Positions 48,925 through 57,905 of a DNA stretch of 64,000 nucleotides are shown in pieces. The DNA comes from an uncultured Lentisphaeria bacterium (GTDB lineage: Bacteria > Fidelibacterota > UBA8477 > JABMPR01): contig CAYXZO010000001.1 in the NCBI GenBank assembly GCA_964469505.1, forward strand, positions 37,402 through 101,401, read 5' to 3'. Within the stretch, counting starts at the first letter, position 1; each line of letters begins with the position of its first letter. The notes beneath the pieces were generated by a model. It was not told the origin of the DNA. It did not search any database and was given only the letters and a program-made list of their open reading frames with translations. The translations under genes and the position numbers were made by a program.

Positions 48925-49482
48925 CTAAAGAAGATTCTCCTCCTCGTTCTGAAACAAGGATTCCGCTTCTTTCAACGGCGGGAGATCGGCCAAAGATTTC
49001 AAGCCGAAATATTGTAGGAATTGAGTGCTGGTGCGGTAGAGAAGAGGTCGGCCGGGCCCTTCATCTCGCCCGGCGATTTCGATCAAATGCCGCTCAAGTA
49101 AGGTTCGTAGGGAAGATTCGGAAGATACCCCCCGGATATTGTCTATTACCGCCCGGGTCACCGGTTGGCGATAAGTAATGACTGCCAAAGTTTCCAGGGC
49201 GGCCTGGGAAAGTCGCAAGCGTTGCCCTTTGTGGTATAGGCGTTTGATATAGGTCTGAAATTCAGGCTTGGTAACGATCTGATAACCGCCGGCCACCTCG
49301 AAAATGGTGAAAGCCCGCTGATCGGTTTCATAATGTTCCTGGAGGGCGGCGATAACCTCAGCCAGGGGTGGCACCTGATCGTCTTCGATTCCCAGCGCCT
49401 GGCGGTAACGCTTTTCCGTAAGGGGTTCGGGAGTGGCAATGAGCAGCGCCTCAACGATGGGTATCACTTCATTCAGCTCCAT
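48925..49482 (-). CDS. scpB: Segregation and condensation protein B
   Basis: 185-aa winged-helix protein following scpA with a 14-nt overlap. Confidence 0.8.
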   Translation of the reverse strand: MELNEVIPIVEALLIATPEPLTEKRYRQALGIEDDQVPPLAEVIAALQEHYETDQRAFTIFEVAGGYQIVTKPEFQTYIKRLYHKGQRLRLSQAALETLAVITYRQPVTRAVIDNIRGVSSESSLRTLLERHLIEIAGRDEGPGRPLLYRTSTQFLQYFGLKSLADLPPLKEAESLFQNEEENLL

Positions 49483-50209
49483 AAGCCACTCCTCTATAAA
49501 GTAGTAAATCTTCGAACATTTTTTTCTGAACCACGCGAACGGTTCGATCCCGCAGACATTCCAATAGGGCCAGAAAAGTCACCACAATAACCAGTCGCGA
49601 CTGAAGTTGTTGCATCAGCTCCAGGAAAGAAAGGGGTTCTTTGGCAGCCAACATATCCAACAAATATCGTTTCTGCTCGGTAACGGTGATCTCCTCAAGT
49701 TGAACCTCGTGGAAGGTTTCCTGTCGGTGGCGTTTGAGCAGATCCTGGAAAGTAGCCATAATGTCGTATAGCTGGACTTCCGCCAATGATTCTTCCGGCT
49801 CCACCGGGTAGCCGGCTTCTACCGGGGCCGGTATACGATAGAAATATCGACTTTGGATATCTTCCTTCAGGGCCAGTTCCTGGGCGGCCTCCTTGAAACG
49901 CTTGTATTCCAGCAACATATTTACCAGCTCGGTGCGGGGATCTTCCACTTCACCCCCCTGCTCATCCTCAGGAGCCGGCAGAAGCATGCGCGCTTTCATT
50001 TTCAGCAAAGTGGCCGCCATCAACACGTAATCCCCGGCGTTGGCCAAGTGGATTTCCTTTGCCTGCTCCACATATCTCAGAAACTTGCCGGTGATTTCCG
50101 CCAAAGGAATGTCATAAATATCAATCTCATCCTTACGGATAAGGAACAACAAGAGGTCCAGGGGACCTTCGAACATTTCTAGTTGAACCCGATAGGGGTT
50201 GAGCGCCAT
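49469..50209 (-). CDS. scpA: Segregation and condensation protein A. The preferred start is the internal Met at 50209 (MALNPYRVQLEMFEGPLDLLLFLI…), because the listed upstream start at 50290 would overlap trpS by 80 nt.
   Basis: ScpA N-terminal signature …FEGPLDLLLFLIRKDEIDIYDIPLAEIT…. The start choice is an inference. Confidence 0.8.
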   Translation of the reverse strand: MALNPYRVQLEMFEGPLDLLLFLIRKDEIDIYDIPLAEITGKFLRYVEQAKEIHLANAGDYVLMAATLLKMKARMLLPAPEDEQGGEVEDPRTELVNMLLEYKRFKEAAQELALKEDIQSRYFYRIPAPVEAGYPVEPEESLAEVQLYDIMATFQDLLKRHRQETFHEVQLEEITVTEQKRYLLDMLAAKEPLSFLELMQQLQSRLVIVVTFLALLECLRDRTVRVVQKKMFEDLLLYRGVAYGAE

Positions 50210-50210
50210 C

Positions 50211-51221
50211 CTATTGGTAGGGAACGAATCCGATTTTGCGGTAAACCTTACGCAGAGTGCGCCGGGCCAAGCTTTGAGCTTCAGCGGCACCCCGTTGGAG
50301 AATTTCCTCCAGATACTTTTTCTCGGAGCGTATTTCCCGATAGCGGGCCTGAAAAGGTTCCAAAACCGCCACCACCAGATCGGCTAATTCCCGCTTTAGA
50401 TCCGCATACCCCCGCCCCTGGAATTTTTCCACCACCTGGGACAATTCCTCCCGGGATAAAGCAGCGTAGATGTTGAGTAAATTAGCCAGCCCTGGTTTGT
50501 TCTCCGGATCGTAAACGACTTCCCGCCCAGAATCGGTGACCGCCCGTTTGATCTTCCGCCGCAACACATCGGGCGGGTCCAACAACGCCAGGTAATTGTT
50601 GGGGTTGGCGTCGGACTTGGACATTTTCTTAGTGGGATCCTGCAGACTCATGATACGAGCACCGGTGGGCGGAATGTAGGGCTCCGGGACTTTAAAAGTA
50701 GGGCCGTAACGGTGATTGAAACGCTGGGCCAGGTCCCTGGTAAGTTCCAGATGCTGTTTCTGGTCTTCACCCACCGGTACCAGATCGGTCTGATACAAGA
50801 GGATGTCAGCGGCCATCAGAACCGGGTAGGTATACAGCCCGGCGTTGATGTTCTCAGCATGGCGGCGAGCTTTATCCTTGAATTGGGTCATACGGTTCAA
50901 TTCGCCCATATGGGTAAAGCACCCTAAAACCCAGGCCAGTTCCGCATGTTGGGGGACGTGGGATTGGATGAAAATGATATTGCGTTCGGGATCGATCCCC
51001 GCCGCCAGGTATTGTGCAGCAAAGGAAAGACAGCGCTGCCTTAAAGCCGCGGGCTCCTGCTGAACCGTAATGGCATGCAGATCGACTACAATGAAGATGC
51101 CCAGATATTTATCCTGCAAAGCCACCCAATTGCGCATGGCCCCTACAAAATTGCCAATGGCCAGCTCACCGGAGGGCTGAATACCGGAAAGCAGAATAGG
51201 ACGTGATTCGGATGTGGTCAT
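50211..51221 (-). CDS. trpS: Tryptophanyl-tRNA synthetase
   Basis: 336 aa with …LSGIQPSGELAIGNFVGA… (HIGH-region variant) and …KMSKSDAN… KMSKS motif. Confidence 0.93.
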   Translation of the reverse strand: MTTSESRPILLSGIQPSGELAIGNFVGAMRNWVALQDKYLGIFIVVDLHAITVQQEPAALRQRCLSFAAQYLAAGIDPERNIIFIQSHVPQHAELAWVLGCFTHMGELNRMTQFKDKARRHAENINAGLYTYPVLMAADILLYQTDLVPVGEDQKQHLELTRDLAQRFNHRYGPTFKVPEPYIPPTGARIMSLQDPTKKMSKSDANPNNYLALLDPPDVLRRKIKRAVTDSGREVVYDPENKPGLANLLNIYAALSREELSQVVEKFQGRGYADLKRELADLVVAVLEPFQARYREIRSEKKYLEEILQRGAAEAQSLARRTLRKVYRKIGFVPYQ

Positions 51222-52093: not shown

Positions 52094-52310
52094 TACGGAT
52101 TCAATCGGAACAGAGGTAGGAGGAAAGGCAGCTAGATTAAGCTTTTGATACGGACTTTAGACTTGGGACCTAGGACTTAAGATTATCTCTGTCGTCCGCC
52201 GTCGAGCGTGGTGTGACGTCTAATTATATTTCTCAAAAAAACAAAAAAAGAAACTTCCAGGGTTTGTTACTCTGTCGGGTGGAAACAGACGTTATTTATA
52301 ATCAAAGGGA

Positions 52311-52346
52311 CTAAAAACCGGAAGGCGTCCTGATGGGCGCCTTCGG
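52311..52346 (-). terminator. Rho-independent terminator for the upstream OM-barrel gene
   Basis: The minus strand reads ccgaaggcgcccatcaggacgccttccgg followed by TTTTT. This is a GC-rich 11-bp stem about 90 nt after the stop. Confidence 0.6.
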
Positions 52347-52434
52347 CGTTCACTCCCCTTAACCCAAGAAGGAGAACTAAATTAAATCGGATTGTGTATT
52401 AAAAGCTATTACTGGGATAAAATCTTGCCAAGGA

Positions 52435-53655
52435 CTAAAAAGCCACCCGCAGCTCCATAAAGATCTGATCATCATCGGCACTGGCACCGAAAGGTGAACC
52501 GGCTGGGCCGTCAAACAGAATAGCTCCCAACGTAAGGTGGGTGGCATCGGCGATTTCCCGGGTGACGAAGGGCAATAAAAACCAATCCCCATCGTTCTGA
52601 TTGTAAACGCCGATAATTTGTATTTCCGTAAAGCCCCCCAGTTTCCAGCGGGTCACCGTGGACCAGGAATAAGAATCGACCGGATAAGCAGTTAAGACAT
52701 GGGTCGCTCCCAGGGAATCCAGGCGCGCTTGCTCAGCATCCTGATCATACTGCAGATAATGCCGCACGATACCCTGTAAATTGAAAGAGAAGCGGTCGTT
52801 GGGTAACCAATCCCCGCCCAGAACGGCGTACAGATTACTGTTTTTCACCAGGGGGTCCGTGCCGTCCTGATCATCACTGATATTCAGCGCCGCTTCTCCT
52901 TTGAGATCCCAATGCTCTCCCGGCCACACGAAATCGGCTCCCAGCATTTTAATGGGACGATAAACGAATACCGGCTTCATAATATTAATTGGCGGTTGCA
53001 TATGATCAAATTCCGGGAATTTGCGCAAGCCCTGGTAGTAGCAGAAAGAATATCCGATGCGTCCCAGGTCCCGGGCAAAACGAAGTCCCCATTGGGAATG
53101 GGCAAAAGCCGAGTCGCTCACCTCCGGGGCATACGGAAATGGAATCTTATCCGGCACATTGACAGGGGAAAAAACCAGTTCCAGAGTTCCCAGGGAGGGG
53201 TAGAAATCCAATTTTATGGCCGGGATCGGGATGCGGTAGTCTTCCAGGTCCGAGGACATGTTTTGATAATCCCAGGGCACGAAGAGGTCGGTGGGGTTGA
53301 CCCAATCGGCGCGGCCCCAGAAGACGTACTGCTGCCCCACGCGGAGATCGAAAAAGTTGCCGTAGTAATCGATGTACCACTCGGCGGGATAGAAGGTAAG
53401 TCCGCTGCCGCGTTCCGCCAGGGCGCCCCGCTCCGCCAGCATACGGTAGCGCGCCACGAATTCAGCCCGGTAGGCAATCCTCTCGCCGATATTCCCATTG
53501 AAACGCCACTGCACCTGGCTATACAGCCGTTCCCAACGGTCGGTATGGTTGGGATTGGCCGCCGCGTAGCTTTTCAAAAAGCCCCCCACTTCCATTTGGC
53601 CGTAAAGGGCCAGCCGGCTCAGGGCCAGCCAGCCTATTACCAGTCGCTTAAGCAT
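52435..53655 (-). CDS. Outer-membrane beta-barrel-like protein (DUF1302-like). The preferred start is MLKRLVIGWLALSRLALYGQ (53655), abutting the upstream gene.
   Basis: Signal peptide. Tyr/Trp/Gly-rich strands. C-terminal …FMELRVAF aromatic terminus. Co-operonic with the LolA-like and MMPL genes. The DUF assignment is from memory. Confidence 0.6.
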   Translation of the reverse strand: MLKRLVIGWLALSRLALYGQMEVGGFLKSYAAANPNHTDRWERLYSQVQWRFNGNIGERIAYRAEFVARYRMLAERGALAERGSGLTFYPAEWYIDYYGNFFDLRVGQQYVFWGRADWVNPTDLFVPWDYQNMSSDLEDYRIPIPAIKLDFYPSLGTLELVFSPVNVPDKIPFPYAPEVSDSAFAHSQWGLRFARDLGRIGYSFCYYQGLRKFPEFDHMQPPINIMKPVFVYRPIKMLGADFVWPGEHWDLKGEAALNISDDQDGTDPLVKNSNLYAVLGGDWLPNDRFSFNLQGIVRHYLQYDQDAEQARLDSLGATHVLTAYPVDSYSWSTVTRWKLGGFTEIQIIGVYNQNDGDWFLLPFVTREIADATHLTLGAILFDGPAGSPFGASADDDQIFMELRVAF

Positions 53656-53656
53656 T

Positions 53657-54436
53657 TCAGCGCCCTCGTTGCAAATAGCGGGGAGTGAAGAACCTGTCCG
53701 GGATGGGTACATCCACTTTCAAGTTTTCGAAAAGCATGCGGCTCTGATGGTTGATTTGCACATCCCGCATCAGCATATCGGTGGCAAAGGGTGCTCCACG
53801 AATTTCCTGAAATTGCAGGACGGTTAGCACTTTCTTTAACTCCCCCGATTTGTCGTAATACTCGGTATAGAAAACGCTGGAATCGGCCTGGTTAACCCAG
53901 TTGATGTATTTGCTGTAACCGGTGTCCTCCAGTACCTGCCTGGTGCGAGGGCGAGCTTCGATGACCCAGGCCCGCCGACCGTCCCGGTTTTCTTCCCGCA
54001 ACAGATGGTAATTCCAATCCTCCAGTTTGGGAGCCCCCAGATCGTAATAAGTGAAATCACTGGACATGAAATTGCCGCCCCGACCGGAGGAGGCGATCTT
54101 CTTGATCCGTCGCAAAGCGGGCAGGTACAGAAAACGATCGTCGGGTCGGTCGGCATTCTCCAGGGTGAGAAAACCGGTACCCACCACATCCCGGGGATAT
54201 ACAAAGCGCATCAGCATCTTGCTCAGATCGGTGCGAGGGTCGGTTTTGGAAAAGAACTTGATTTTGCGAATCCGCTTTTCTCCGGTACTGGAGATAAGCA
54301 CCAGTTGCATATCGGCTTGCATGCTGGTAATTGTGTTGCGCTGTAGGATGCTCTTCATGATCTCGTAACCCTTGTCGGCGGCGGGTAGGTGCACCACCAG
54401 CACCATAAGCAAGAGCGAAACAATTCTTTTCATCAT
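53657..54436 (-). CDS. LolA-like 'outer membrane lipoprotein-sorting protein' family periplasmic protein
   Basis: 259 aa with signal peptide MMKRIVSLLLMVLVVHLPAADKG…. Its size and composition match LolA-like proteins commonly encoded next to MMPL/RND transporters. Confidence 0.6.
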   Translation of the reverse strand: MMKRIVSLLLMVLVVHLPAADKGYEIMKSILQRNTITSMQADMQLVLISSTGEKRIRKIKFFSKTDPRTDLSKMLMRFVYPRDVVGTGFLTLENADRPDDRFLYLPALRRIKKIASSGRGGNFMSSDFTYYDLGAPKLEDWNYHLLREENRDGRRAWVIEARPRTRQVLEDTGYSKYINWVNQADSSVFYTEYYDKSGELKKVLTVLQFQEIRGAPFATDMLMRDVQINHQSRMLFENLKVDVPIPDRFFTPRYLQRGR

Positions 54437-56805
54437 TACACCTCTTTTATTTGCAAACTCTTGGGTTTCAGGAGGATGAAGACACCGGGCACGATGGTCA
54501 GAGCTCCAAAAGCCGCCGTGAGCATGGTGAGGGTAATCATGGCTCCCATTTCCCGAATGGGTACGAAGGCCGAAGTGGCAATCACCGCGAAACCCGCCGC
54601 CACCACGATGGAGTTGTACAGGATAGCCAGCCCCGACTCACGCATGGTAGCCCCGACCGCGGATTCGTAAGTATGCCCCTCCTTCAGCTTCATCCGGTAG
54701 CGATGGATGAAATGAATGGCATAGTCCACTCCCACCCCGATGGCAATACTGGAAGTAGTCAGAGTCTCTAGGTTGATCTTTATGCCGGTGAAGCCCATTA
54801 CGGCAAAGTTCAAAACTAGGGCGAAAAAGAGGGGTAGAGTGTTGAAAAAACCCACCACGGGTGAGCGGAACATGAAAGTGGTCAGCAGCCAGACCAGAAA
54901 CAGAGAGGTAATGATGCTGTAGAACTGCCCTTTAACGATCATGTCATCCACTACCGTGACCAGCTTGGCCAGCCCGGTGACAGCGGCTTGTACGGAGTCG
55001 TTATTCACATGCTGCTCCAGGTAACGGGAGAGAACATGATCCACCCGCCGCAGGGCTGCCACGTCGTCTGTGTTGAGCATGATGTTCATCTTGCCGTACT
55101 GGTATTTGTAATCCACCAGATTTTCCATGCTGCCGGGTTTGCCGGACATTTCCAGCAGTTGAAGATATTGGGCCACCAATTCACGGCCCGAGACCCGATA
55201 GGTTTTTTCCACTTCCTTCCAAGTGCCATTCTCTTCCACCCATTCGGTTCCGGTTACATTGGTACTCTCAGGCGGAATGCGGTAAAAGGCGGGATCATCG
55301 GCATGGAGCACCTTATTAATGCGCTTGATAAAGTCAGCCAGTGATTGGACGCTGCCCACGTGCGGCTGCCGCAGCGCCAGGTCTTTCAAGGAATCCAGTC
55401 TGGCAAGAAGCAAAGGATCTTTCATAACATCCTCGCGCCGCCCTTCCACCATAACGGCGAAACCAGTGGTGCCGGCGAAGTGCTCATTGACCCATTCCGC
55501 TGCTTCCCGCACCGGGTGGCCTTCAGGAAAACCTTTGATTGAAGAAAAACCATAATCCAACCGGGTGAATCCCCAAACTGCAATGAGGAGGGTGAGTATT
55601 ATAAAAGGCAACATCAGCTGTTTCTCTTTCACCAAGAAATTACCCCAACGCTCCATTAAATCAGCTCCGTTGCGGCGTGCCTTATATTTGCGGAAACGAA
55701 GGGGTACTGGGAGAAGTACTAAAAAAGCGGGGAACCAAGTCAACGTCAATACGAGGGCGAAAAGCACTCCCAGGGCAGTGAATATTCCCAGTGTGGCAAC
55801 CGAGGTAGCTCCCACCGTGCCTAAGGCGATAAAGCCAGCCATGGTGGTTAAAGAGGTCATAATTACTGGTGCACTCATCTCTTGCATGGTTATCTCGGTT
55901 AGCTCGGCTGAAGTGGCTCCCGGCTTTTCTCCTGCATGGTGGTAAAAATGGGAAAGTATGTGAATACTATCCGCCACGGCGATGGCCATGATGAGTATGG
56001 GCAGAATTTCCAGGGCGTGCCCCATGGGAATCTTAAGCAGCGCCAGGAGTCCCATGGTCCAGATCACAGAGAATATGACTACTGATAGCGGCAAGAAAAT
56101 CCCCCGGAAATTGCGGAATATTACGAGAAGCAGCAGGAAAATAATCCCGATGCCGGCCATGAAAAAAATACCCATGTCCCGCTGCATACCCTGGCTCACG
56201 TAATAACTAACCACCGGTTTACCGGTAATGATCACCTTCAGCTTAGTAGTATTGCGAAACTTGTCGATATCCTTGATGAGCTGGGCCACAAATTTAGGGA
56301 CATCGGCTGTGCTTTTCAGGAAAAGCATAATACCAAATGCCTGCTGATCTTTGCTGACCAGATTGCCCAGCGCCAGATCGCTATGAAACAGGTCATAACG
56401 AAAATGTTCGATATCAACGGCGGCCTTAGGCGGCTCTGAAAGGATATCATAAACCTCCATACCTTCGGGAGTTCCTTTGATCACAGAAACATTGGTGGGA
56501 GAAATAACCGAATGAACCGCCGGGTAGGTTTCCAGTTTTTTGGTAAGTTGCCACACGGTTTGGAGATTCTCGGGTGCGAAAATATCATCTCCAGACAAGC
56601 CCACGAAAATGAACTCCTGGGAAGGAAATATTTCCCCCATTTTATCATAGAGACGCTTAGCGGGGATATGTTGGGGCAGCGCCGCAGTGACATCCGGATT
56701 CATTTTTAGATTCCTGATGGCATACCCCAGCCCCAAGGTGATAACAAGATTTATTACAATTAAGGTTTTCGGGAAACGTAACACCAGGCGTATCCAGTGG
56801 TTCAT
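54436..56805 (-). CDS. MMPL/RND-superfamily transporter (HpnN-like, 12 TM with two periplasmic loops)
   Basis: 789 aa beginning MNHWIRLVLRFPKTLIVINLVITLGLGYAI…, with two hydrophobic 6-TM bundles (…AVADSIHILSHFYH… conserved TM4-like region). Confidence 0.85.
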   Translation of the reverse strand: MNHWIRLVLRFPKTLIVINLVITLGLGYAIRNLKMNPDVTAALPQHIPAKRLYDKMGEIFPSQEFIFVGLSGDDIFAPENLQTVWQLTKKLETYPAVHSVISPTNVSVIKGTPEGMEVYDILSEPPKAAVDIEHFRYDLFHSDLALGNLVSKDQQAFGIMLFLKSTADVPKFVAQLIKDIDKFRNTTKLKVIITGKPVVSYYVSQGMQRDMGIFFMAGIGIIFLLLLVIFRNFRGIFLPLSVVIFSVIWTMGLLALLKIPMGHALEILPILIMAIAVADSIHILSHFYHHAGEKPGATSAELTEITMQEMSAPVIMTSLTTMAGFIALGTVGATSVATLGIFTALGVLFALVLTLTWFPAFLVLLPVPLRFRKYKARRNGADLMERWGNFLVKEKQLMLPFIILTLLIAVWGFTRLDYGFSSIKGFPEGHPVREAAEWVNEHFAGTTGFAVMVEGRREDVMKDPLLLARLDSLKDLALRQPHVGSVQSLADFIKRINKVLHADDPAFYRIPPESTNVTGTEWVEENGTWKEVEKTYRVSGRELVAQYLQLLEMSGKPGSMENLVDYKYQYGKMNIMLNTDDVAALRRVDHVLSRYLEQHVNNDSVQAAVTGLAKLVTVVDDMIVKGQFYSIITSLFLVWLLTTFMFRSPVVGFFNTLPLFFALVLNFAVMGFTGIKINLETLTTSSIAIGVGVDYAIHFIHRYRMKLKEGHTYESAVGATMRESGLAILYNSIVVAAGFAVIATSAFVPIREMGAMITLTMLTAAFGALTIVPGVFILLKPKSLQIKEV

Positions 56806-57620
56806 GTTTTCTCCTTGAAGAACGCGTTGAAGATTGTCTCCAGGTGGTCAATCTCCTTGTCCAGATACGTTCGCGAATAGCCACGTAGCAGTTTGGAGCT
56901 CAACCCCAGCAAGAAAGTCCAGATAATCTGAATCATGAGATTGGCATCCTCGGGAGCCATTCGGGGCAGACGAGCGGCGAAAAGACGATTCAGCTCCTGG
57001 TGGTGCAATTCCCGTAGTTCAGCAATTTCCCGGCAATTAAGCAGTTCCTCCGGAGCATGGGTACCCAAAGGCATGAATAGGCGCAAGAAATGAGGGTTTT
57101 GCTCCATGAAGTCCAGGTAGGAATGCATCATGGTGGAGAACAACCGTTCCCGGGGGGTCTGCCATAGAGTTTCCAGCAACCGGCGGTAGTACCGATCTAC
57201 CATCTCACCATGCATAGCGGTGTATATGGCTTCCTTACTGGGGAAGTAATAATAGAGGGTAGCTTTCCCCAGCCTGGCTGCAGCCGCGATTTCCGCCATG
57301 GTGGTATTGCGGTAACCATTTTGGGCAAAGAGACGAAAAGCGGTTTCCAGGATCAGTTGGCGTCGCTGTTCTTTTTCTTGTGCTCGTCTTTCGTGGTGAG
57401 GATTTCGACCGCTTGTTTTATTTTCGACCACTCGGTCGAATAAACATAATTCATCCCGAAACAGCAAGAATTTTTTTCGAAAATCCAGGGCATAATGAGG
57501 GCGTTTTCGAGACGCGTAATCATTCGTCTTTACGTGATTCCGTTCTCCACCTAGCCGCGGCGGAAAGCAACCACCGGCAAACCGTAGGGCGAAATTCATT
57601 TCGCTGTAAAAGTCCTCCAC
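56802..57620 (-). CDS. TetR/AcrR-family transcriptional regulator. The N-terminus is uncertain: the listed start is GTG, and the HTH begins about 85 aa in.
   Basis: HTH …ILETAFRLFAQNGYRNTTMAEIAAAARLGKATLYYYFPSKEAIY… The stop overlaps the MMPL start by 4 nt. Confidence 0.82.
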   Translation of the reverse strand: MEDFYSEMNFALRFAGGCFPPRLGGERNHVKTNDYASRKRPHYALDFRKKFLLFRDELCLFDRVVENKTSGRNPHHERRAQEKEQRRQLILETAFRLFAQNGYRNTTMAEIAAAARLGKATLYYYFPSKEAIYTAMHGEMVDRYYRRLLETLWQTPRERLFSTMMHSYLDFMEQNPHFLRLFMPLGTHAPEELLNCREIAELRELHHQELNRLFAARLPRMAPEDANLMIQIIWTFLLGLSSKLLRGYSRTYLDKEIDHLETIFNAFFKEKT

Positions 57621-57627
57621 AAAGTAG

Positions 57628-57666
57628 TGTTAAACGGTGTTTAAACGACGTTTAATGGTCGTTGAA
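57628..57666. promoter_or_regulatory. Near-palindromic AT-rich motif (gtgttaaacggtgtttaaacgacgtttaatggtcgtt) directly upstream of the tetR ORF. Candidate TetR operator.
   Basis: Contains GTTTAAAC and an AACGAC…GTCGTT inverted repeat. Positional inference only. Confidence 0.25.
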
Positions 57667-57750: not shown

Positions 57751-57905
57751 TGTCATTGCGAGTGAGTCCCGATCCCGCCCTGGCGGGAGGATGAACGAAG
57801 CAATCCGTCAGATATTTCCATTACACTCTTCCTGCCGCCGGTCCTTTCCGACGAACCGGTACGGATTGCTTCGTCTCCCGATAAATCGGGATCCTCGCAA
57901 TGACA
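57751..57905. repeat. Approximately 155-bp nested inverted-repeat element: outer arms tgtcattgcgag…gatcccg / cgggatcctcgcaatgaca, and inner 13-bp perfect IR cgaagcaatccgt / acggattgcttcg. MITE-like or structured RNA.
   Basis: Arms at 57751-57777 vs 57886-57905 and 57796-57808 vs 57861-57873, read from the sequence. There is also a cccgcc..ggcggg mini-palindrome at 57774-57787. Confidence 0.4.

Follow-up and report, generated by a model that had tools for sequence, protein, structure and literature searches.

A widespread TetR, RND, LolA-like and barrel gene cassette in a Fidelibacterota contig: a candidate trans-envelope transporter of hydrophobic molecules

Do four tightly packed genes on the minus strand of a Fidelibacterota contig, encoding a TetR-family regulator, a resistance-nodulation-division (RND) pump, a LolA-like periplasmic protein and an outer-membrane barrel, build a single machine, and if so, what would it move and in which direction? 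The genes lie in a stretch of 64,000 nucleotides (contig CAYXZO010000001.1, positions 37,402 to 101,401, here called the window) from an uncultured bacterium, and a preliminary description of this DNA had proposed that they form an exporter of lipids or other hydrophobic compounds. Our analysis shows that the unit is real, with all four open reading frames (ORFs) present on that strand, and that the genes very probably form one tripartite RND transport unit. With moderate confidence, we favour the reading that it is a TetR-autoregulated, inducible and proton-driven trans-envelope transporter, carrying hydrophobic or amphiphilic molecules outward without a membrane fusion protein (MFP). The cassette is already known in kind and is widespread; its main value is comparative and resides in its operator and in the link that it provides between LolA3, together with the PG1178-81 operon of Porphyromonas gingivalis, and the DUF1302/DUF1329/RND clusters of Proteobacteria.

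That the four genes belong together is indicated by their conservation across genomes. One genome per species was scanned with a profile of the LolA-like protein, yielding 80 loci whose ORFs were searched with the window proteins and profiles; the counts exclude artefacts caused by ORF extension and masked runs of N. This sample spans about ten phyla in all, including Marinimicrobia/Fidelibacterota, Calditrichota, Melioribacteraceae/Ignavibacteriales, KSB1, Aminicenantes, Deferribacteres, Myxococcales, Planctomycetota, Acidobacteria and Desulfobacterales, among others. Co-occurrence of the genes is almost complete: always on the same strand, the LolA-like gene is immediately preceded by an RND gene in 71 of the 73 assessable loci and immediately followed by a barrel gene in 76/77, and a TetR gene stands in front of the RND gene in all but two of 52. 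The genuine exceptions are a locus without an RND gene (L069), one with a different order (L085) and two without TetR (L015 and L056). The four genes keep this order in dozens of unrelated genomes, which is far more than chance would produce. Furthermore, clustering of all the other ORFs of the 80 loci disclosed no further recurrent family, the next largest cluster being present in 9 loci, and the flanks vary from locus to locus, so that the cassette appears self-contained and unattached to a biosynthetic or catabolic pathway. No MFP or TolC-family gene was found in the operon or in the conserved neighbourhood of these loci, which agrees with the absence of an MFP gene noted in the preliminary description; likewise, no gene for a Ycf48/BNR-like protein (COG4447) was seen in the operon, in the gene tables of related loci or as a recurring neighbour across the sample. 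The Desulfobacterales exception (L085:7977-13475) presents the carrier, a barrel of 501 aa and then a longer RND protein (~1060 aa), and could represent a form intermediate between the short cassette and the long one of Proteobacteria.

The organisation of the genes in the window (Table 1) points in the same direction. The four ORFs follow one another head-to-tail, from TetR through RND and LolA-like protein to barrel, with spacings of -4, -1/+2 and +1 nt. The TetR stop and the RND start share an ATGA preceded by AGGAG, the RND/LolA-like junction TAATGATG is a 1-nt overlap, or a 2-nt gap when counted from the second ATG, and the LolA-like/barrel junction is TGAaATG; the junctions had indeed been described as 4-nt overlapping or abutting. 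Two gene boundaries had to be revised. The TetR frame is open up to 57620, its first possible start and the end assigned to it before, which makes the gene 189 nt too long, since the VVENKTSGR of the window aligns with the MVENKP... N-termini of the closest homologues. The LolA-like protein, given earlier as 259 aa, loses one residue, a 100% identical database protein beginning at the second ATG; its LolA-like nature is retained, as detailed below. The start and length announced for the barrel hold, on the basis of a 406-aa database protein that is also 100% identical. At the other end of the operon, the intrinsic terminator is confirmed by the folding of a 65-nt minus-strand segment (52296-52360) at -32.4 kcal/mol (z = -5.4, with 0/200 shuffles as stable), its stem CCGAAGGCG...CGCCUUCCGG being followed by UUUUU ~90 nt downstream of the barrel gene. 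A simple terminator scan missed this GC-rich hairpin, whose loop is longer than the limit of the scan.

Table 1. Positions in the window of the four genes and of the sequence elements associated with them.
Feature	Position	Strand	Remarks
Outer-membrane barrel gene	52435-53655	-	406 aa
LolA-like periplasmic protein gene	53657-54433	-	258 aa
RND pump gene	54436-56805	-	789 aa
TetR-family repressor gene	56802-57431	-	209 aa, start GTG 57431
Intrinsic terminator	52311-52346	-	hairpin and U-run, operon end
Palindromic operator TTCGACC-N4-GGTCGAA	57423-57440	not assigned	overlaps TetR start codon
Second half-site GGTCGAA	57404-57410	-	12 nt downstream of palindrome; read directly from the sequence

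What kind of pump does the cassette contain? Judging from its family matches, the RND protein is an inner-membrane transporter of the HAE3/MMPL type. Pfam assigns it to MMPL (PF03176, 5.9e-44, 150.8 bits against a cut-off of 20.5, in two stretches), with further matches to Sterol-sensing (2.7e-11) and Patched and a marginal one to ACR_tran (34 bits, one transmembrane bundle), and the best NCBIfam match is the HAE3 model TIGR00921 (5.1e-78, 262.9 bits), whose cut-off of 351.9 is not reached. An identity as HpnN was considered and rejected, given that the scores against the HpnN models fail the cut-offs (TIGR03480, 132.1 bits for 751.85; NF052374, 47.3 bits for 1100) and that no hpn genes occur in the flanks. 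The BstA model gives 48 bits for a cut-off of 1400, the MmpL3 model is also far below its cut-off, and the nearest solved chains in a PDB sequence search are those of MmpL4, at 1.3e-10 only. The hydropathy profile is that of a protein with 12 transmembrane segments (TM), 11 of them clear hydrophobic segments and the other an Asp-bearing TM10, and places two periplasmic domains at ~34-211 (TM1-2 loop) and ~415-627 (TM7-8 loop). Asp279 and His282 in TM4 are conserved in 56 and 59 of 60 homologues, and Asp694, Tyr695 and His698 in TM10 in 60, 58 and 59 of them. By analogy with MmpL3 and HpnN, these residues would constitute the proton relay.

The periplasmic protein is, according to its sequence and its modelled fold, a soluble PF17131 protein with the LolA fold, of the type named 'LolA3'. 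Its Pfam match to PF17131 (LolA_like, now TP_0789-like) reaches 4.6e-55 and 186.6 bits for a cut-off of 30, a secondary match to DUF1329 stands at 2.9e-10 and 40.4 bits for a cut-off of 23.1, and the LolA family is not present in the Pfam match table. The protein carries a type I signal peptide and has no cysteine, including at a lipobox position, and should therefore be soluble in the periplasm. Its AlphaFold2 (AF2) model, with a predicted local distance difference test (pLDDT) value of 87.7, comprises an N-terminal helix, 13 strands and a C-terminal helix, a secondary structure that agrees with the one published for P. gingivalis LolA3 (PMC13103446). Indeed, the structure of the latter (PGN0947, 9tp6, released in February 2026) is matched by the model in Foldseek with TM-scores of 0.83/0.90 and an E-value of 4.9e-25, and phmmer aligns the two sequences at 2e-31 with 30% identity. 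The DUF1329 crystal structure 4z48 (0.82/0.88) and 3bk5 are matched as well, the three forming a group at 0.82-0.90, whereas true LolA, LolB, RseB and LprG trail at 0.55 or less, with 0.35-0.43 for the true LolA structures. The half-barrel anticipated in the preliminary description is thus recovered in the model.

Model and profile likewise identify the last protein as a short and divergent outer-membrane barrel of the DUF1302 type. Its N-terminus is a signal peptide that lacks Cys, its C-terminus reads ...RVAF, its match to DUF1302 (PF06980) scores 25.9 bits for a cut-off of 23.2, and its relatives reach up to 43.6 bits with most of the model covered. All the domain families anticipated for the pump, the carrier and the barrel are thereby found. 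The barrel fold is also borne out, the model being an 18-stranded channel that resembles Occ and AlgE channels, with Occ-type substrate uptake channels as its closest folds; the same folds are reported for a canonical DUF1302 protein (PMC13499233). A sequence search against the PDB gave no matches for this protein. A profile search retrieved 7,807 cluster representatives (50% identity) at E<=1e-3, 991 of them at E<=1e-30, mostly of 400-450 aa. The idea of a rare barrel family, raised by a word-indexed search that gave 15 proteins, was rejected once the fetched loci and the representative library, searched with profiles, showed the family to be large. The most conserved stretch of the barrel, residues 103-141 (window 53235-53349), overlaps the region of the Pfam DUF1302 match and includes D103, G107, Q109, W113, G114, D117, N120-D123, P127, E138, D139 and R141. 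This stretch may be a lumenal plug, a constriction or a docking site for the carrier.

How is the cassette regulated? The first gene product matches TetR_N in Pfam (5.1e-19) and the TetR C-terminal domains weakly, and a sequence search of the PDB returned generic TetR regulators only, with nothing pointing to a ligand. A perfect palindrome, TTCGACC-gagt-GGTCGAA, covers its start codon and is the sole match to this motif in the window, even with 2 mismatches allowed. In ~40 related loci, drawn from several phyla, the TetR gene carries this motif at its 5' end, with variants such as TTCGACT-N4-AGTCGAA and TTGACT-N4-AGTCAA. Furthermore, many of these loci display a second copy or half-site ~12 nt further on. 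The window has its counterpart at this place, and tandem operators with the same spacing as in the window are found in L029, L035, L052, L066, L075 and L076, so the half-site probably represents the right arm of a second, degenerate operator. Taken across genomes, this is strong comparative evidence for autoregulation of TetR through the predicted operator, which offers a direct experimental route to the inducing ligand. The start codon of the TetR gene is located inside the 4-nt spacer of the operator, and is GTG in the window and, among the closest homologues, ATG; loci that are more distant have this operator upstream of a later ATG. Because the start codon sits within the operator, the leader would be very short or absent, which suggests that the tetR message is leaderless or nearly so in the clade of the window. 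A sigma-70 scan found no promoter for the operon; weak candidates recognised by eye only are TTGCTG-17 nt-TTTATT (57467-57439) and a Bacteroidota-like TAtgTTTA.

Among the systems described so far, the closest in kind are the proteobacterial clusters of DUF1302, DUF1329, Ycf48 and HAE3 proteins, of which the cassette is a compact relative. Examples are AmeABCD of Castellaniella defragrans, Sama_1588-1591 of Shewanella, and PP_0765/0766 with PP_2018/2019 of Pseudomonas. AmeABCD is induced on monoterpenes, and its deletion lowers monoterpene tolerance and increases Nile Red accumulation (PMC6394551). The genes for DUF1302, DUF1329, BNR and RND proteins are cofit in Shewanella, Kangiella and Pseudomonas (10.1101/072470), P. 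putida needs its homologues to grow on Tween 20 and fatty esters (10.1101/2020.07.04.188060), and a strain of Desulfobacterota that degrades benzene expresses a similar cluster at a high level (PMC13101534). AlphaFold co-folding places DUF1329 bound either to the DUF1302 barrel or to RND plus the Ycf48-like protein (PMC10866462), with an interface predicted TM-score (ipTM) of 0.84 in one such DUF1329 prediction (PMC13499233). As in our cassette, AmeABCD-type clusters combine a HAE3 RND protein of equal size (787 aa) with a LolA-superfamily periplasmic protein and a DUF1302 barrel in the absence of MFP or TolC; their genes are linked or cofit and are tied to hydrophobic compounds (PMC6394551; 10.1101/072470; PMC10866462). 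The window cassette differs in several respects: it lacks the Ycf48/BNR-like fourth protein, its carrier is the short PF17131 form (258 vs ~450 aa), its barrel is also short (406 vs ~600 aa), its gene order is reversed (regulator, RND, carrier, barrel) and its regulator is TetR rather than LuxR or AraC. The likeness to DUF1302/DUF1329-RND clusters put forward in the preliminary description therefore extends to the DUF1302 and DUF1329 matches but not to the Ycf48-like component. Its statement that their substrates are undefined is only partly right, given the monoterpene-tolerance phenotype of AmeABCD (PMC6394551) and the phenotypes of the Pseudomonas homologues on Tween 20 and fatty esters (10.1101/2020.07.04.188060).

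A second relative, of the same architecture, was reached through LolA3. With the 9tp6 sequence, reconstructed from the alignment, as a query, the LolA3 gene was located between MMPL and DUF1302 genes in a P. gingivalis-like contig, in P. macacae and in Bacteroides zoogleoformans (loci L086, L087 and L088); the P. macacae locus also holds genes for TetR, a 136-aa protein, a methyltransferase and two ATP-binding cassette (ABC) half-transporters. These loci correspond to P. gingivalis PG1178-81, and the 'orphan' LolA3 is the carrier of the same cassette. PG1178-PG1181 (TetR, MMPL, LolA3 and a 'porin') contain the same four families in the same order as in the window (PMC10434189; PMC13096392), and their LolA3 is the closest solved structure to the window carrier. 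The relationship is distant, with ~1e-47 for the RND protein and ~4e-43 for the barrel against the window profiles; in addition, the Porphyromonas cassette is extended by the two ABC half-transporters, and that of P. macacae by two further small genes. PG1178-81 is presented as one transcription unit, apparently regulated by TetR, in the statement of PMC11018363 that cites Boutrin 2016, and PG1181 is upregulated 84-fold under nitric oxide (NO) stress (PMC11018363). The operon is upregulated 13- to 136-fold in iron depletion, as are similar operons of Prevotella intermedia (PMC10434189), and four of its genes rank with the most hemin-responsive of the genome (PMC10470040); as late as 2026, it was referred to as an uncharacterised transport system (PMC13096392). 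Such induction, by haem/iron limitation and by NO, has so far been reported for oral Bacteroidota alone. P. gingivalis LolA3 shows only very weak binding of LolB, and neither the LolA Arg nor the LolB Leu signature is present in it (PMC13103446); deletion of lolA3 in Flavobacterium johnsoniae causes no gliding or type IX secretion defect, a quintuple lolA/lolB mutant being viable (PMC11885536). Both LolA3 papers (PMC13103446, PMC11885536) mention no RND partner. The cassette, which ranges from Marinimicrobia to human oral and gut Bacteroidota and of which the window holds one clean example, helps to join three literatures that do not cite one another, those on the DUF1302/DUF1329/RND clusters, on LolA3 (solved in 2026) and on PG1178-81.

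More remote comparisons can be made with other RND systems. HpnN, BstA(BC) and MmpL3/4/5 share with the window pump the 12-TM MMPL layout, two periplasmic domains, acidic residues in TM4 and TM10 and the absence of an MFP; they handle lipids or lipophilic siderophores, some with periplasmic partners, and MmpL4 is the best PDB sequence match. However, similarity is very low (1e-10 to 1e-6), the equivalog scores are far below the cut-offs, and these systems have no DUF1302 barrel and usually lie beside biosynthetic genes. AcrAB-TolC and TtgABC (HAE1), on the other hand, are like the cassette in bringing together an RND pump, a periplasmic component and an outer-membrane channel, and in their TetR-family repressor acting on a palindromic operator at its own promoter, as predicted here. 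Their periplasmic component is an MFP and their outer-membrane part a trimeric TolC tunnel, where the window has a soluble LolA-fold protein and an 18-stranded barrel of monomer type.

How, then, would the machine work? A TetR dimer would sit on TTCGACC-N4-GGTCGAA, covering its own start codon and the likely promoter, until a lipophilic ligand frees it and the four tightly coupled genes are expressed together. The RND pump, with Asp279 in TM4 and Asp694-Tyr695 in TM10 coupling it to the proton gradient, would lift its substrate from the inner membrane or the periplasm into its periplasmic domains. The soluble LolA-fold protein would then accept the substrate in its hydrophobic half-barrel and dock on the periplasmic face of the barrel, which would release it through or into the outer membrane. 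We infer these physical contacts, as well as the substrate class. The outward direction is favoured because bacterial RND pumps, to our knowledge, are exporters wherever they have been characterised, because AmeABCD acts as an exporter and because a substrate-responsive TetR is typical of efflux. Of the 'exporter' proposed in the preliminary description, the transport unit is well supported, and export is the direction that we infer.

Several observations weigh against this account. Growth on Tween 20 and fatty esters is lost in the Pseudomonas mutants, a phenotype that resembles a defect in uptake (10.1101/2020.07.04.188060; PMC10866462); what the P. gingivalis operon responds to is haem/iron limitation and NO, not solvents (PMC10434189, PMC10470040, PMC11018363); and the binding site of the modelled F. 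johnsoniae LolA3 is described as more polar (PMC11885536). On the side of the barrel, the DUF1302 score of the window protein is marginal, and the AF2 model is at its least confident in the most conserved stretch, residues 103-141, with pLDDT <50 at residues 118-128 and 131-140.

Foremost among the alternatives, although we consider it unlikely, is that the cassette exports an endogenous envelope lipid in the manner of HpnN, BstABC or MmpL3, the RND protein flipping or extracting the lipid, the LolA-like protein ferrying it and the barrel inserting it in the outer membrane. HpnN and BstABC are RND systems without an MFP that are paired with a periplasmic carrier for lipid export, and this combination is an established pattern to which the MMPL, sterol-sensing and Patched matches of the pump, its weak HpnN and BstA matches and the LolA fold of the carrier would conform; Price et al. 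also put forward a cell-wall component as what the proteobacterial clusters export (10.1101/072470). Yet none of the 80 loci, whose flanks differ everywhere, links the cassette to a lipid-biosynthesis gene, and the scores against the HpnN and BstA models lie far under the cut-offs. Moreover, an autoregulated TetR suits an inducible response better than constitutive biogenesis, and the F. johnsoniae phenotypes reported above do not speak for an envelope lipid exporter either.

Somewhat less probable still is the import of a hydrophobic nutrient, in the direction taken from NPC2 to NPC1, where the barrel would admit the molecule, the LolA-like protein carry it and the RND protein, with its sterol-sensing domain, insert it in the inner membrane. 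The sterol-sensing and Patched/NPC1-type matches of the pump, the Occ-type uptake channels as the closest folds of the barrel and the high expression of the cluster in the benzene degrader (PMC13101534) would all fit. So would the growth requirement of the Pseudomonas homologues on Tween 20 and butyl stearate (10.1101/2020.07.04.188060; PMC10866462) and the place of the P. gingivalis homologue among the operons most induced under haem/iron limitation, where the authors suggest that it may compensate for missing haem uptake (PMC10434189, PMC10470040, PMC13096392). Against import stand the lower tolerance and the higher dye accumulation of the AmeABCD mutant, which point outward (PMC6394551), and the lack of catabolic genes linked to the cassette in the 80 loci. 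The export activity of characterised RND pumps is a further argument against it. A broader and equally doubtful proposal is that the cassette stands for a distinct, multi-phylum class of RND machines in which MFP and TolC give way to a soluble LolA-fold carrier and a barrel of 18 strands, with the carrier docking alternately on pump and barrel, and which, at least in some lineages, might work inward (NPC2 to NPC1-like) for a scarce hydrophobic cofactor such as haem, a porphyrin or a quinone. An inward machine of this kind, if true, would account for the extreme degree to which haem/iron limitation induces the Porphyromonas and Prevotella homologues. Finally, a role as a Lol-pathway paralogue, with the carrier as a lipoprotein-sorting chaperone in a cassette for lipoprotein trafficking, as the name 'outer membrane lipoprotein-sorting protein' in the source annotations and the LolA-superfamily fold would have it, is rejected as highly improbable, being contradicted by the Pfam assignment to PF17131 and DUF1329 without LolA, by the low TM-scores to true LolA proteins, by the very weak LolB binding and missing signatures of P. 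gingivalis LolA3 (PMC13103446), by the absence of a gliding or type IX secretion phenotype in the F. johnsoniae mutant (PMC11885536) and by the invariant association with an RND pump and a barrel instead of LolCDE or LolB.

Around the candidate transporter, the window is chromosomal. GC content shows no break between the operon and its flanks, the immediate neighbours are genes for an NlpC/P60 protein, trpS, scpAB and an alpha-amylase, and the nearest homologues are annotated as Marinimicrobia, Neomarinimicrobiota or Fidelibacterota, the lineage to which the window probably belongs. Upstream, large ORFs and a tRNA cluster would be typical of the region of rpoBC, ribosomal-protein genes and tuf, if their sizes are a good guide to their identities. 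The longest ScpA ORF (49469-50290, 273 aa, GTG) overlaps the end of trpS (50211-51221) by 80 nt; this is an artefact of taking the first possible start, the gene call of an identical contig giving a ScpA of 246 aa.

Two further elements lie upstream of the operon. At 57630-57655, ~200 nt upstream of where TetR starts, there is a palindrome, TTAAACGGTGTTTAAACGACGTTTAA, that bears no relation to the TetR operator motif and could serve as a site for another regulator. In the ~780 bp that separate the TetR gene from the divergent alpha-amylase gene, nested perfect inverted repeats of 12 nt (57751-57762/57894-57905) and 14 nt (57795-57808/57861-57874) delimit a hairpin of ~155 nt (57751-57905), which folds at -79.5 kcal/mol (z = -5.9). 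This hairpin has no Rfam match and could be a palindromic element resembling miniature inverted-repeat transposable elements (MITE) or repetitive extragenic palindromes (REP), or else a structured RNA.

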